Shown: positions 1 through 7,345, counted from the stretch's first letter. The stretch: 64,000 nt of DNA from an uncultured delta proteobacterium (GCA_963842685.1 CAWJHT010000041.1:18282-82281); one strand, 5' to 3'. A program made the numbers and translations. The notes: generated by a model from the sequence alone, not told the origin.

Positions 1-842
1 GTTCGAGGACCTCCGCCTTCAATTCCTCCAGGGCGGCTTCGAGGCCCTGCAGGTGCGTCCGGACCTCCGTCTCCCTGTTTTTGAGCGCATTTTTCGCCTC
101 TTCCCGGGAGGTCCGGCGGCGGAGAGGTCGGCATAGGTCTGGAGGGCGACGGTCAGCTCGGCCTCCTTCACCGCCTTCTTCAGGGCCTTGTACTGCTCCG
201 CCTTCTTCGCCTGGCGGGAGATCGCGTCGAGCTGCGTCTTGACCTCGCGGATGATGTCGTTCAGGCGGAGCAGGTTCTGCTGGGTCGCCTCCATCTTCCG
301 GACGGCCGACTCCTTCCGGCTCTTGTACTTGGAGATGCCGGCGGCCTCCTCGATGAACTGCCGCCGCTCTTCCGGCTTCGCCTCGACCAGGGAGGCGACG
401 CTGTTCTGCTCGACGAGGGAGTAGGTCCGGGCGCCGACCCCCGTGCCCATGAAAAATTCCCGGACGTCCAGCAGGCGGCAGGGAATCTTGTTGATCGTGT
501 ATTCGCTTTCCCCGTCGCGGAAGAGGCGCCGGGTGATCATCATCTCGCTGCACTCCGCGTAGTCCCGGGGAATTGCTGCTCATCCGCCGTGAGCATCATG
601 GAGACCTCGGCCATCCCGACGGGGGCGGCCTCTTCCGAGCCGTTGAAGATCACGTCGTCCATCTTCTTCCCGCGGAGCGTCTTGACCCGCTGCTCGCCCA
701 TGACCCAGCGGATCGCATCGGCGATGTTGCTCTTGCCGCAGCCGTTCGGGCCGACGATGCCGCTGATCCCGGGGGAGAAATCGACGACGACCTTTTCCAG
801 GAAGGATTTGAAACCGGTGATTTCCAGCTTCTTGAGTCTCAT
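1..842 (-). pseudogene. smc: Chromosome segregation protein SMC, 5' part (gene runs off the window start); frame broken twice
   Basis: MRLKKLEITGFKSF...GPNGCGKSN Walker A in ORF 540..920. It continues in ORF 19..543 (FMGTGVGARTYSLVEQ, coiled coil) and then in a third frame (LRRRTSREEAKNALKNRETEV...). Frame changes near ~541 and ~125. Confidence 0.85.
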
Positions 843-1902: not shown

Positions 1903-3298
1903 TGCCCGAGAACCGTCTTCTGGTACAGGTCGTCGAAGGCGCCCTGCGGATCGTATTTCGCCTTGAGCTTCCGGTAGGCATCGCCGTTGTAGATGCGCCA
2001 GAATTCGTCTTCGGGGAAGAAGGATTGCGAATAGAGCGACTTGCGGCCGCCGAGCTCCTGGACGATGCGTTCGATGCGGCGGTTGAAATGCCCGGCGGCC
2101 TTGTCCGAAGAGGTCCGGACGCTTCCCCAGAACCCGAAGTTCAGGTAGAGCGCGCCCGGTTTCATGGCAAAAAGGGTCCAGTCCGCGGCGGCGTCAAGGG
2201 GGCGCAGCGGGCAGATCCAGCAGGGCCGGATGTCGATCTCGCGAAAATAGAAGTCGAGGAATTCCGGCGACTTTCTCGATGGGGATCTCGACATCCTGGA
2301 TCACCTGTTCGAACCGCTCGACGGGCATGTGCAGGACTTTGCGGATCGCATGTGACCCGTTCCTCGATCTTCCATCTCTCGGTACAGGGATTGGATCTTC
2401 CAGTAGGAGCTGGAACGCAGCATCCAGCGCCCGAACAGACGGCGCAGCAGGGGATTCTGCATGCCGAAGCTCCGCGAACACCAGAACCAGTCGGGATCCC
2501 ATCGCCAGAGGAAATCCCGCATGGTCAGGAGATCCTCGGTGCGGCTCTGCAGGGATCGGTAGTAGATCTGCATCCCCTTGTAGTCGCTGACCGGGCCGCG
2601 CTTCGTGGGTGAGCCGCGCCGTGGTGAGGACGAAGTCGCCGGGGGCGAAGGCGACCCCCTCGACGAAGTCCGGCGCATCGGGACCCTGTGCGCAGGCCGC
2701 TACCAGCGCGGACGAGAAATGGCGCGCGGTCGGTGAAGCGCCGGTGGGTGAGCGCGACAAAGGGACGGCACGGCAGGAGCTTCACGCGCAGGCGAAGGAT
2801 GTAGCCGAGGGTTCCGTAGGAATTCGGGATGGCATGGAAGAGGTCCGCGTTCTCGTTGTCGGGACGGCAGACGCGGATGGTTCCGTCGCCGCAGAGGATT
2901 TCCATCTCCTCGACCGTCTCGTGCACGAGCCCGTACCGGAACGAAGACGCTTCGATGCCGAGCCCGGAGACCGCACCGCCGACGGTGATGGTCTTGAGCT
3001 CCGGAACCACGGGCGGACGCAGGCCCTTCGGGAGCGTCGCATCGGCGAAGTCCTCGAAGGTGGTCATCCCCTCCACTTCGGCGATCCGGCGTTCCGGATC
3101 GATCTCGATGACCCGGCTGAGGCGTCGGACGTCGAGCTTTTGGGCTGCGGCTTCGGTGCGGGTGCGGAACAGGTTCGAGGTCTTCTTCGCCAGGCGGACC
3201 CGGCCGCCCGCCCGGCTCGCCATGGCGCGGGACAGTTCCCGGCAGGTCCTGCGATAGGATTCCCAGCTGTCGAAGAGGTCGGGCGGATTCCGGTTCAT
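1899..3298 (-). pseudogene. FAD-binding (PCMH/FAD_binding_4, DHCR24-like) oxidoreductase; at least four frame breaks
   Basis: MNRNPPDLF...TITVGGAVSGLGIEASSFRYGLVHETVEEMEILCGDGTIRVCRPDNENADLFHAIPNSYGTLGYILRLRVKL. Continues through ORFs 2194..2760, 2301..2678 and 1899..2294 (...YRKLKAKYDPQGAFDDLYQKTV). Confidence 0.75.
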
Positions 3299-4418
3299 CA
3301 ACGGACGCCTTTTCCATCCGCCGCGGATGCCGTCCTTCGAGAGCACCAACTGCCAGAGCTGGATTTGCCGGCTGCGAAATGCGCCCGCGCAGGAGAGGAG
3401 GTAATACCGCCACATGCGGTAGAAACGTTCGCCGTATTCCTCGGAGAAGCGCGGCCAGGACTTTTCGAAGTTCGCATGCCAGGCCATCAGGGTGCGGTCA
3501 TAGTCGGCGCCGAAGCTGTGCCAGTCTTCCAGGACAAAGAGGTCATCCATGGCCTGACCGAGCTGCGCGACCGAGGGCAGCATGCCGCCCGGGAATATGT
3601 AGCGGTCGATCCAGGCATCCGTGTGAGTGACGGAACGGTTTCTGCCGATGGTGTGCAGCAGGAAAATCCCGCCCGGTTTGAGGCAGCGGTGGGCGAGTTC
3701 GAGGAAACTCCGGTAGTTCTTGTAGCCGACATGCTCGCACAGGCCGATCGCGGCGACCTTGTCGAAGACGCCCGTGGCTTCCCGGTAGTCCTGGAGGCGA
3801 AATTCCACGGGGAGGCCTTTGCACTTGGCCCGGGCCCATTCGACCTGCGCGGCGGAAATGTTGTATGCAATCACCTCCACGCCGTAGTGTTCCGCCGCAT
3901 AGCGCGCGAAACCGCCCCACCCGCATCCGAGCTCGAGGACCTTCTCGCCGGGCGCGAGGGCCAGTTTACGGCAGATGAGGTCGAGCTTGGCCTCCTGGGC
4001 GGCGGCAAGATCCCCGGCGGTCCCGTTCCAGTAGGCGCAGGTGTACTGCATGTAGGGATCGAGCATCGCCTCGTAGAAGGCATTGCCGATGTCGTAGTGG
4101 ACCTTGGCGACCTTGAGCGAGCGTCGCTTGCTCTGCCCGTTGAGAAGCTTCGCCTTGGCCACTTCGACGAGCATGGCGGGGGTGGGGCGGATTTTCCGGT
4201 CGTGGTGGGCGGTCAGCACCCGGTCGAAGAACTGGTCCAGGGCTTCGCAGTCCCACATGCCGTCCATGTAGGATTCCCCGAGGCCGAGCGAAACGTCGTC
4301 GGCAGATGCGCTCGTAGGTGGCCTCATCGTGGCATTGCATATCCCACGGCCGCCCGCCGTTGATGCGGATATCCGCCTGGTCGAAGAGAGTCGCGATCAA
4401 GTCTGGCAGTTTGGACAT
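3296..4418 (-). pseudogene. cfa: Cyclopropane-fatty-acyl-phospholipid synthase family SAM methyltransferase; frame break near ~4320
   Basis: Alignable by eye along its length to E. coli Cfa: LGLGESYMDGMWDCE, MLDPYMQYTCAYW, VLELGCGWGG, GIFLLHTIG, YIFPGGMLPS, DWHSFGADYDRTLMAW, FRSRQIQLWQLVLS. The N-terminus is in ORF 3966..4418. Confidence 0.85.
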
Positions 4419-4644
4419 GCGTTCCTCCTCTCTTCTGAGTCAAGCAGGGCGGCATTGCCCGGTGAAACAGGCTGATGTGTAATCTTTACACCGTAAATAT
4501 ACCGGGAAGGAGAGGGCGGGTCAAGGAAATTTGGTTGCCGGGAAATATCCGATTGAAAGATCCTCTTAAAGGATTTATGATTATCAACCACTAAGCCATT
4601 GACTCGATGCTCGGTTCGGAAATAGAGAGGAGGCAATCGTTCCC

Positions 4645-5799
4645 ATGGAGAAACATCTGGTTTTTGTCGGCGGGGGGCATGCCCATCTGCTCTCGCTGAA
4701 AAATCTTGCCTGCTTCACGGGTCTGGGTCACCGTGTCACGCTGGTGAGCTCCTCCCCCTATCACTATTATTCCGGAATGGGACCCGGCATGCTCTCCGGG
4801 ATTTACCATCCCTGGGAGGCACGCTTTCATGTAAAAAAGCTTGCCGAGGATCGGGGGGCAGCCTTTATCGAGGGGAAGGCCGTCAAAGTGGACCCCGCTC
4901 AGCGCCTTATTTTTTTAGCCTCCGGCGAGACGGTTCATTACGACGTCGCGTCCTTCAACACGGGAAGCGACGTTCCCGTCGAGAGGCTGGTCACAAAACC
5001 GGAAGATAATCTATTTCCCGTAAAGCCTGTGCTCCATCTCCTCAAGGCCCGGCAAACCATTGTGAAGGCGATCAGAGAAGGCAGGTCGCTGCGGCTCGCC
5101 GTTGTGGGAGGAGGTCCGGCAGGCGTTGAAGTTTCGGCCAATCTGCTGAGACTCCTGAAGGATAGTCGGGGTAAGGGAGAAATCACCCTGATCGCGGCAA
5201 AAAAACTGCTGGACGGCGCACCCGACAAGGCGCGCCGTCTGGCGGTGGAGTCGCTTACCGGCAGGGGAGTCCGGGTCATCGAAGGGGCTCAGGTGAAGGC
5301 CGTTGAAAGGCAAAAAATCCTCTTGAACGATGGAGAAGATATTGCCCTGGACATCGCCTTTATCGCCATAGGCATTCGACCTTCTGCTCTTTTTCGCGAC
5401 TCTGGGATTCCCACGGGACCGGACGGAGGAATGCTGGTCAATTCCCACCTCCAGAGCGTGGCCTATCCGGATCTCTTTGGGGGCGGGGACTGCATCAGTT
5501 TGGAAGGACGTCAACTGGCCAAGGTCGGCGTCTATGCGGTGAGGGAAAACCCCATTCTTTTCCATAATCTCACGTCGGCGCTGGAAGGGGGGACGATGAA
5601 CGTCTTTTCGCCTCAATCGCATTACCTGCTGATCTTAACATGGGGAATGGAAGGGGCATTTACTGGAAAAAGGGCTGGGTATGGGAAGGCAGGCTGGCGT
5701 TCCTGCTGAAGGACTACATCGACCGGAAGTTTATGAGGGAATTTCAACTCTCCGGAGAGCTCGATGAGCAATCGGACATCGTTGAAGAAGGAGGATAGA
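4645..5799 (+). pseudogene. FAD-dependent pyridine nucleotide-disulfide oxidoreductase (NDH-2-like); frame break near ~5650
   Basis: N-terminal dinucleotide fold LVFVGGGHAHL and a second one, LAVVGGGPAGVE. The C-terminal tail is recovered in another frame (WKKGWVWEGRLAFLLKDYIDRKFMREFQLSGEL...), ending near 5799. Confidence 0.75.
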
Positions 5800-5810
5800 G
5801 GAGTGGCGCG

Positions 5811-6650
5811 ATGGATATATTGAATTACTTCAAACCCGTTTCGACCTGGTCGGCGGAAAAGATCCGCAAATTTATAAAGGATAAAAATCCGGAAGCCTAT
5901 AATCTGATCGATGTGAGAACCCCCAAGGAGTATGAAAAGGGTCATCTCCCCGGTGCGCGGCTGATCCCCCTGGGTGAACTCGCGGATCGCCTTTCCGAAG
6001 TGGACCCCGCTAAACCGACCCTTGTCTACTGAGCTGCGGGATTACGCAGCCGGGCGGCTGCCGCCACATTTTCGGGAGCGGGATTCAAGGAGGTCTTCAG
6101 CATGGAAGGGGGGATCAATGCCTGGAAAGGGCTGGTGGCGGAGGGAAACCCGCAATCAGGCATGGCCTATTTCCCTCCGGCTGCAGGACCGGAGGAGTTA
6201 ATGGCCCTGGCGTGGTTTCTGGAAGAGGGATCGCGAAAGTTCTACACGGAACTGGCGGCAACACTGACGGACAAGGAGGCGAGGGATCTTTACGGGCAAC
6301 TGTCCGAAGCGGAAGAGAACCACAAGGCCGCCCTTCTTAACCTGTATAACGAGAGCCCCGACAGGCCGCCCGGTTTGAAGTTCCCGTGGGGACTGATTTC
6401 CGATGGAAGGCAAGACGATGTGATGGAAGGGGGTATGCGTGTCGGTGAGGCGCTGCAATGGGCGAAGGGAAAAAAGACGACCGACGTCCTGGAGCTCTCC
6501 CTCTCCCTGGAAACCAATGCGTACGATCTCTACCTCAACATGGAACGCAGGACGGAAGCGAAGCAGGCGGCACAGGTCTTTCATGTGCTGGCCGGCGAGG
6601 AAAAGCAGCACCTCGAACGATTGGGCCTTCTGCTCGAAAAAAAGATCTAG
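5811..6650 (+). CDS. Rhodanese domain fused to a ferritin/rubrerythrin-like domain; in-frame UGA (6030..6032) at the catalytic Cys position, candidate selenocysteine
   Basis: ORFs 5811..6032 and 6102..6650 are in the same frame. Read-through gives TLVY-[UGA]-AAGLRSRAAAATF, which matches the rhodanese active-site loop Y-C-x-x-G-x-R-S. Downstream there are ExxH-type motifs (EAEENH, GEEKQH). Confidence 0.7.
6033..6061 (+). promoter_or_regulatory. Candidate bacterial SECIS hairpin(s) immediately 3' of the UGA
   Basis: Two mutually exclusive perfect 6-bp hairpins. GCUGCG-GGAUUA-CGCAGC lies at 6033..6050. GCAGCC-GGGC-GGCUGC lies at 6046..6061, with a G-rich apical loop about 20 nt after the UGA. 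Confidence 0.5.
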
Positions 6651-6780: not shown

Positions 6781-7345
6781 ATGATAAAAAAAGTCTGGTC
6801 CTTTTAGGGAGTCCGAGAAGAAAAGGGAATAGCGCCATTTTGGCAGAGCAGATCACAAGGGAGCGAAATCGGGAAAAGCAAAGGTTGAAACCATTTATTT
6901 ACATGGGAAGAACATTGCTCCCTGCAAAGCCTGCATGAGCTGCCAAAAGAAAGGCAGCAAGGGCTGTTCCATCCAGGATGACATGCAGGAGATCTATCCA
7001 AAGCTCATTGAAGCGGACGCCTGGGTAATCGCCAGTCCCGTTTACTGGTTTACGATGTCCGCCCAGACCAAGATCTTCATGGATCGGTGTTTTGCGCTAC
7101 CCGCCTATCATAAAGATCCCTTCCGGGGTAAACGGATCGCCATCGCCATGACGTACGGTGACGAAGATCCTTTTACGTCCGGGTGCGTCAATGCCTTGAG
7201 GACTTTTCAGGATGCCTATGGATATACGGAATCCCCGATTGTAGGGATGGTCTATGGGAGCGCCATGGATGCCGGTCGGATCCGATCCAACGAAAAGGTG
7301 ATGCAGGAAGCTTTCGATCTGGGGAAAAAGCTGGTGGCGGAATGA
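6781..7345 (+). pseudogene. Iron-sulfur flavoprotein / NADPH-dependent FMN reductase-like flavodoxin-fold protein; two frame breaks (~6795, ~6855)
   Basis: MIKKV(LVLLGSPRRKGNSAILAEQIT)...ETIYLHGKNIAPCKACMSCQKKGSKGC shows a compact CxxCxxCx7C motif. It is followed by ADAWVIASPVYWFTMSAQTKIFMDR. Confidence 0.7.

Follow-up and report, generated by a model that had tools for sequence, protein, structure and literature searches.

A probable selenoprotein joining a rhodanese to a rubrerythrin-like domain in anaerobic bacteria

Introduction

Rhodaneses that carry selenocysteine (Sec, written U in motifs) are a reported selenoprotein family, of which forms 1 to 5 have been catalogued in reviews (PMC13188914, PMC9312934). 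Form 1 has the motif UxxS, forms 2 and 4 have UxxG, form 3 has CxU (NF041203) and form 5 is TsoB (PMC13188914); PMC9312934 lists a 'rhodanese-related sulfurtransferase COG0607', and form 4 has its origin in COG2897, the two-domain type known from the Sargasso Sea study. A fusion of such a protein to a ferritin or rubrerythrin domain occurs in neither PMC13188914 nor PMC9312934, and none was found in the literature searched. Here we describe a gene that very probably encodes one. It lies at 5811..6650 in a stretch of 64,000 nucleotides from an uncultured delta proteobacterium (GCA_963842685.1 CAWJHT010000041.1:18282-82281), which we call the window. The original prediction, drawn up from this DNA, had proposed a Sec codon at the catalytic position of a rhodanese here and had rightly counted Sec-containing rhodanese-related sulfurtransferases among the reported families.

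Rubrerythrins reduce peroxide with electrons that reach them through a flavoprotein-dependent chain. Rhodaneses, for their part, are known in combination both with flavoproteins and with iron enzymes. In the NADH-dependent persulfide reductase Npsr (3nta), CoADR-RHD (3icr) and the coenzyme A (CoA)-persulfide reductase (8a56), a rhodanese domain of the subtype found in the window is fused to a flavoprotein of the pyridine-nucleotide-disulfide-oxidoreductase family, to which a protein encoded next to our gene also belongs, and these enzymes set a precedent for reducing a persulfide on a rhodanese loop at the expense of NAD(P)H (reduced nicotinamide adenine dinucleotide or its phosphate). In PRF (5ve3), a persulfide dioxygenase-rhodanese fusion, the same rhodanese subtype is fused to an iron enzyme domain, a precedent for iron chemistry coupled to a rhodanese-bound persulfide.

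Results

One reading frame across a UGA codon

Two open reading frames (ORFs), 5811..6032 and 6102..6650, share one frame in the window, and the TGA at 6030..6032 is the only stop between them, exactly where the original prediction had put it. Reading through this codon gives VY-U-AAGLRS, which aligns the UGA with the cysteine column of the CxxGxR[ST] loop of rhodaneses, again as had been claimed: 93 full-length homologues in the protein databases have a Cys there. The elements of the gene are the following.

5811..6650, plus strand: gene for the probable Sec rhodanese with a ferritin-like, predicted di-iron domain, 279 amino acids, from the ATG at 5811 to the TAG stop at 6648..6650
6030..6032, plus strand: UGA, probable Sec residue 74 at the catalytic rhodanese position, in the loop U-A-A-G-L-R-S
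5799..5803, plus strand: Shine-Dalgarno-like AGGAG as seen in the sequence itself, 7 nt ahead of the ATG and overlapping the end of the upstream gene

We hold with high confidence that 5811..6650 is a single gene in which the TGA at 6030..6032 is recoded as selenocysteine. This reading is supported by the retention of the TGA in 70 of 80 homologous loci, by a hairpin confined to the Sec forms, and by the presence in the genome of selA, selB, selD and other selenoprotein genes. The homologues of 270-290 amino acids recovered by the protein search support a single gene of 279 codons as well. Residue 74 is the only Cys-type residue among the 279, and the protein has no CxxC pair.

Conservation of the TGA among homologues

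A search of 5.8 billion protein sequences returned 773 relatives, and we examined the state of the Sec column in the best 120. Among these, 93 are full-length proteins (about 270-290 amino acids) with Cys at the column, two have W, and about 24 are fragments of 182 or 202-203 amino acids that begin just past it, with MEGGINAW or [MLV]RSRAAAA; MBI4633820.1, a 'hypothetical protein' in GenBank, is one of them. Such fragments are the usual trace of a selenoprotein split by a gene caller. The two W-containing sequences (P0003 and P0011, VYWAAG[VL]RS) are public metagenome gene calls, evidently made under a code in which TGA means Trp, so that selenoproteins are masked in them as complete proteins.

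At the DNA level we compared 80 homologous loci from other species, on contigs taken from one genome per species. The aligned codon is TGA in 70 of these loci and TGC or TGT in the remaining 10, with no Trp codon in any. Past the codon, all the TGA loci remain open across what is left of the rhodanese and across the helical domain. TGA is carried by Syntrophales, other Thermodesulfobacteriota, Nitrospirota/Thermodesulfovibrionia and one metagenome-assembled genome (MAG) of Acidobacteriota, and Cys by loci of Geobacter MAGs and a few Nitrospirota. In a maximum-likelihood tree the window groups with MAGs of Syntrophaceae/Syntrophales in a supported clade of 13 members, all of them Sec forms, and the distribution of Sec and Cys over the tree requires six changes, of which three or more fall on supported branches.

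These data bear directly on the possibility that the TGA is a true stop separating two genes, one for a rhodanese fragment of 73 amino acids and one for a ferritin-like protein of 182 amino acids starting at ATG 6102. TGA is indeed the commonest stop codon of this genome, and public gene calls of 182 and 202-203 amino acids start just past it, MBI4633820.1 being an example. However, the 73-residue piece would lack the whole active-site loop together with the last strand and helix of the domain, and the 69 nt that separate the TGA from ATG 6102 encode AAGxRSRAAAA...GF.EV in frame in every locus. The Cys homologues, moreover, are single proteins of 270-290 amino acids, and the hairpin described below is fixed in the TGA forms only. 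We consider two separate genes very unlikely.

A hairpin fixed in the Sec forms

The original prediction had noted two perfect 6-bp hairpins directly 3' of the UGA. Both exist, but only the second is conserved, the first being a peculiarity of this sequence.

6046..6061, plus strand: candidate Sec insertion sequence (SECIS), stem 6046..6050/6057..6061 (GCAGC/GCUGC), beginning 13 nt past the UGA
6033..6050, plus strand: competing hairpin GCUGCG/CGCAGC directly after the UGA, non-conserved, part of the minimum free energy (MFE) fold

In the window, a sixth pair in the candidate SECIS (C6051-G6056) leaves a GGGC loop, which would be CGGGCG on a 5-bp stem. The expectation of a GGGC loop about 20 nt after the UGA thus holds for the conserved hairpin, whose loop lies about 19 nt past the codon. 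The calculated energies are -10.5 kcal/mol for 6033..6050 and -10.2 kcal/mol for 6046..6061, and the two structures are mutually exclusive because they share bases 6046..6050. As the fold energy of 6025..6085 is only mildly unusual (z = -1.88, with 8 of 200 shuffles equalling it), the case for the hairpin is comparative and not energetic.

Counting positions from the U of UGA, +17..21 (GCAGC) pairs with +28..32 (GCUGC) in a 5-bp stem around a loop CGKGCN. Of 71 Sec forms, 70 keep this stem whole, and no Cys form does so (n = 10; Fisher p = 2e-11 for the first 72 sequences). The 71 take in the window and nine loci parsed later; the codon counts below are based on 62 Sec forms. Since the peptide that follows U is almost invariant, the test is placed at synonymous sites. 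Codon +5 is CGC in 60/62 Sec forms, where the Cys forms (n = 10) use CGC, CGA, CGG or AGG; codon +6 is AGC in 59/62; and codon +9 is GCT in all 62, against one of the 10 Cys forms, the Cys forms having GCG, GCA, GCC, GCT or GGC there. At the flanking Ala codons +8 and +10, all four synonyms are used freely by the same 62 Sec forms. The RNAalifold consensus consists of exactly the 6046..6061 hairpin.

The criterion of bSECISearch is a G-containing apical loop roughly 16-37 nt from the UGA. The 6046..6061 hairpin combines this downstream position and a G-containing loop with conservation among the Sec forms. The competing hairpin was rejected as a SECIS: all six pairs form in just 4/62 Sec forms, because codons +1 and +2 vary, and its loop lies about 6 nt past the UGA. 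An Rfam scan of 5900..6200 (E <= 10) gave only a chance match to a long non-coding RNA.

The same comparison speaks to a second explanation, in which the gene really codes for Cys (TGC or TGT) and the TGA arose through faulty sequencing or assembly, or by a recent nonsense mutation. The assembly does contain frameshifts nearby, one in the upstream flavoprotein gene (~5637) and at least two in a flavin mononucleotide (FMN) reductase gene (6783-6935), and another in selA. Yet the errors seen are indels and not substitutions, and the selenoprotein gene itself is free of them; the nearest 13 relatives in the tree all have TGA; and the window carries the Sec-specific string CGC AGC CGG GCG GCT GC, present in 0/10 Cys forms. 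An error or a recent mutation is, in our judgment, most improbable.

Sec machinery of the genome

The window belongs to contig C41 of an assembly of 3.93 Mb in 107 contigs, estimated to be 77% complete. Of the Sec-decoding genes that the original prediction had proposed to look for, selA, selB and selD were found above curated cut-offs (393, 344 and 392 bits, respectively), and selC was not found. Besides these, selD is itself interrupted by an in-frame UGA, at its canonical site GAG-U-ACK (C67:15308-16237), and two genes for the formate dehydrogenase alpha subunit (FdhA) have a U at their canonical site (CART-U-HAPTV and QARV-U-HGPTV, or ...AR[TV]-U-H[AG]PTV).

C92:24744-25151 and C100:45421-45942: FdhA selenoprotein genes, each with an in-frame U and a hairpin

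The hairpins of these genes offer an internal reference. That of selD has a 5-bp stem (+15..19/+25..29) with a loop CGGGC from +20, and one of the fdhA hairpins has a 7-bp stem with a loop GGUCU from +22, so that the loops of the SelD and FdhA hairpins begin about 20-22 nt past the U of UGA. The loop of the rhodanese hairpin, CGGGCG from +22, falls in the register of the SelD and FdhA hairpins of its own genome and is nearly that of SelD.

The selA gene runs in two overlapping frames, with the break just ahead of the conserved FSGDKLLGGPQAG stretch, which holds the lysine for pyridoxal phosphate. This break is either an assembly indel or the mark of a truly broken selA, a choice that bears on the organism's Sec synthesis. 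Because the assembly is incomplete and rich in indels, which affect at least three further genes nearby, the break in selA and the missing selC are probably both assembly faults. In the search for selC, four tRNA-Sec candidates were examined and turned out to be tRNA-Ser and tRNA-Arg.

It could also be that the UGA is read through, only not as Sec: Trp or Cys might be inserted by near-cognate or suppressor decoding, or Sec insertion might have been lost. The absence of selC and the frameshift in selA lend this some weight, as do the two public gene calls that give W under a TGA=W code. The latter, however, come from the genetic code with which the gene caller was run; selD and the two fdhA genes also need their in-frame UGA, so that all three would fail as well if Sec insertion had been lost; only TGA, TGC and TGT are found at the column, with no Trp codon in any homologue; and the SECIS-type hairpin is conserved. 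Readthrough without Sec seems to us scarcely credible. As for TGA being a sense codon in general, it is the commonest stop here, ending 1652 of 2698 long ORFs, which excludes a reassigned code.

Several observations nevertheless weigh against Sec recoding at 6030..6032, and we set them out together. No tRNA-Sec is present among the 43 tRNAs that ARAGORN finds in the whole of the 77%-complete genome, the best matches to Rfam RF01852 are tRNA-Ser and not tRNA-Sec, and selA is frameshifted in the assembly (C22:13883-15257). The stem of the candidate SECIS has only 5-6 bp and is invariant, with zero compensatory covariation; as the stem never varies, its support comes from fixation at synonymous sites and from the contrast between Sec and Cys forms. 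A sign test on independent contrasts yields 3-6 pairs, all in the expected direction and too few for significance. The MFE fold includes the competing hairpin, at -22.7 kcal/mol versus -13.2 kcal/mol when the SECIS is forced. Finally, the function that we propose below is inferred from domain content and one neighbour.

The rhodanese and predicted di-iron domains

The protein is made of two domains, whose limits and predicted metal ligands are as follows.

5853..6128, plus strand: rhodanese domain, residues 15-106 (Pfam PF00581, 76.7 bits, E 2e-21)
6189..6644, plus strand: ferritin/rubrerythrin-like four-helix bundle, residues 127-278 (PF02915, 44.1 bits against a cut-off of 22.8 bits, E 3.5e-11)
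6222..6224, 6312..6314 and 6321..6323, plus strand: codons of the predicted ligands E138, E168 and H171
6510..6512, 6600..6602 and 6609..6611, plus strand: codons of the predicted ligands E234, E264 and H267

The ferritin- or rubrerythrin-like character of the C-terminal half, and the ExxH motifs read in it by the original prediction, are borne out by these matches (E168-x-x-H171 and E264-x-x-H267). Across 96 homologues, E138, E168, E234, E264 and H267 are invariant and H171 is nearly so, and the resulting pattern E/ExxH/E/ExxH would amount to a complete set of di-iron ligands.

An AlphaFold2 model built on the alignment of the 96 sequences (mean predicted local distance difference test score 89.8, predicted template modelling score 0.88) has an alpha/beta rhodanese domain, a less confident linker at residues 107-126 and four long helices (127-151, 155-181, 223-247 and 251-278). 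This fused architecture is absent from the entries of the PDB, in which Foldseek aligns only about 100 residues of the rhodanese. For the rhodanese half, profile searches of the PDB and Foldseek place single-domain rhodaneses and the rhodanese domains of Npsr, CoADR-RHD and PRF nearest, and the profile search also finds the rhodanese domain of the CoA-persulfide reductase. For the helical half, the profile search points to TM1526 (1vjx), 2fzf, symerythrin and rubrerythrins.

A flavoprotein encoded upstream

4645..5798, plus strand: partner flavoprotein of the pyridine-nucleotide-disulfide-oxidoreductase family, of the flavin adenine dinucleotide (FAD)/NAD(P)H type (Pfam Pyr_redox_2), ending 12 nt before the selenoprotein gene
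4553..4581: promoter-like site ahead of the partner gene

An orthologue of this flavoprotein, of about 375 amino acids and in frame, is found directly upstream and on the same strand in 30 of the 80 loci. The 30 comprise 27 Sec forms and three Cys forms (L046, L047 and L073); as the partner accompanies both, the pairing is independent of selenium in the active site. When the ORFs flanking the 80 loci were clustered, the flavoprotein was the only recurrent partner. The FMN reductase, DUF2007, radical SAM and methyltransferase genes of the window show no conserved pairing across the same loci, and selD is absent from all 80 neighbourhoods examined.

The best NCBIfam match of the partner is TIGR03169 (Nterm_to_SelD), over its full length and with E values from 1e-72 to 1e-83. 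The truncated copy in the window scores 242.8 bits, and intact orthologues score 278.5 and 246.7 bits, all below the cut-off of 310. The only conserved Cys of the partner lies inside the GGGDC motif that binds FAD, so that the protein does not belong with the disulfide-relay reductases, such as those of the Npsr/CoADR type. In this it is like flavoproteins whose electrons go straight to iron centres or small acceptors.

In the window, the partner gene changes frame near 5635..5639 (...HYLLIL in one frame, NMGNGRGIYW... in the next), at a TTAAC where one extra A restores the frame. Both parts are contiguous in a single frame in the orthologous loci checked, and the frameshift is probably a one-nucleotide deletion error of the assembly.

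Two other genes of the window have irregular frames. An FMN reductase (PF03358) that starts at ATG 6783 (MIKKV...) needs at least two frame changes to reach the ORF at 6935..7345, at about 6795, after a run of seven A, and at about 6865, a further sign of an indel-rich assembly. On the minus strand, 2525..4327 is an ORF of 600 amino acids that joins a methyltransferase of the cyclopropane-fatty-acid-synthase type (PF02353) to FAD_binding_4; its last 80 or so residues are of low complexity, rich in Arg, Pro and Ala, and look as though read out of frame, a hint of one more frameshift or of an unusual fusion.

Discussion

The conservation of the TGA, the hairpin that goes with it and the other selenoprotein genes of the genome suggest how the gene may be expressed. 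A ribosome arriving at the UGA (6030..6032) would have the hairpin at 6046..6061 just outside its mRNA channel, where it could recruit SelB carrying Sec-tRNA(Sec), and Sec would be inserted at residue 74. The competing hairpin at 6033..6050 would be blocked at this point, its 5' arm covered by the paused ribosome, and this would free bases 6046..6050 for the SECIS. The product would be a cytoplasmic protein of 279 amino acids that joins a loop bearing a selenol to a di-iron domain of four helices.

With the NAD(P)H-dependent flavoprotein encoded upstream, this protein may form a small redox module. NAD(P)H would reduce the flavoprotein, and the flavoprotein would in turn reduce the di-iron centre: since it has no redox-active pair of cysteines, electrons are probably passed to the di-iron centre, in the manner of the rubredoxin-type reductases that feed rubrerythrin and unlike a disulfide relay. 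The Sec could form a selenenyl-sulfide or a perselenide, holding a sulfur or selenium atom for reduction and release. Alternatively, it could be oxidised by peroxide; either way it would be regenerated with electrons from NAD(P)H. That the two proteins carry out this chemistry is a tentative proposal. In the same cautious spirit, the fusion and its TIGR03169-like flavoprotein could be an undescribed NAD(P)H-driven system of strict anaerobes, in which electrons would run from flavin to di-iron centre to a chalcogen or peroxide at the selenol, with the Sec-rhodanese standing in for the rubredoxin domain of rubrerythrin.

The main alternative functional reading is that the system could mobilise selenium for selenophosphate synthesis (SelD). 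The one pointer in this direction is the family resemblance of the flavoprotein, which is the closest relative of the domain fused to SelD.

Whichever function is retained, the gene is split, here and in most public entries, into a fragment of 73 amino acids and a product of 182-203 amino acids labelled 'rubrerythrin' or 'hypothetical protein', which hides the family from selenoproteome counts and functional surveys. It is widespread in anaerobes, and Sec-encoding in 70 of the 80 species representatives sampled. A selenol beside a predicted di-iron centre, together with a flavoprotein related to the SelD domain, is a combination without a characterised example. Identifying its substrate would add an enzyme to sulfur and selenium trafficking, or to the defence against oxidative stress, in syntrophs, sulfate reducers and Nitrospirota.

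Of the catalogued Sec-rhodaneses, the UxxG forms 2 and 4 come nearest: like our protein they carry Sec where the catalytic Cys of a PF00581 domain would be, in a U-x-x-G motif (here U-A-A-G), a likeness that is by description, as the catalogued forms are given by Pfam domain and motif only. They are also bioinformatic predictions, found mainly in anaerobes of the Deltaproteobacteria type, and have Cys homologues. Two other forms were tried and rejected. The model of form 3 (NF041203) scores 23.4 bits against a cut-off of 115, the motif here being Y-U-A and not CxU, and that of form 5 (NF045694, TsoB, which resembles a rhodanese/DsbD fusion) scores 15.2 bits against a cut-off of 805. What would be new here is the domain architecture and the partner, and the protein may already have been counted, its second domain unremarked.

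The comparison with the other systems follows the parts of the protein. In Npsr, CoADR-RHD and the CoA-persulfide reductase the flavoprotein and the rhodanese are fused and a redox-active Cys sits near the flavin, whereas here they are encoded by separate genes and the GGGDC Cys is the only one; the rhodanese of those enzymes has neither Sec nor a di-iron domain, and ours would have both. TIGR03169 describes an NDH-like domain that is fused to SelD in some bacteria, unlike the partner here, which is not. PRF differs from our protein in having a mononuclear dioxygenase of the metallo-beta-lactamase fold, in being aerobic, in using Cys and not Sec, and in the order of its domains. Finally, rubrerythrin, symerythrin and the TM1526-type proteins (PF02915; 1vjx, 2fzf, 3qhb) share with the helical half an E/ExxH/E/ExxH four-helix bundle and a place in anaerobes, although its similarity to the PF02915-type proteins of the PDB is modest (E 1e-10 to 1e-4). 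Rubrerythrin has a rubredoxin-like Cys4 domain that our protein lacks, and it is at the position of this accessory domain that the Sec-rhodanese is found.

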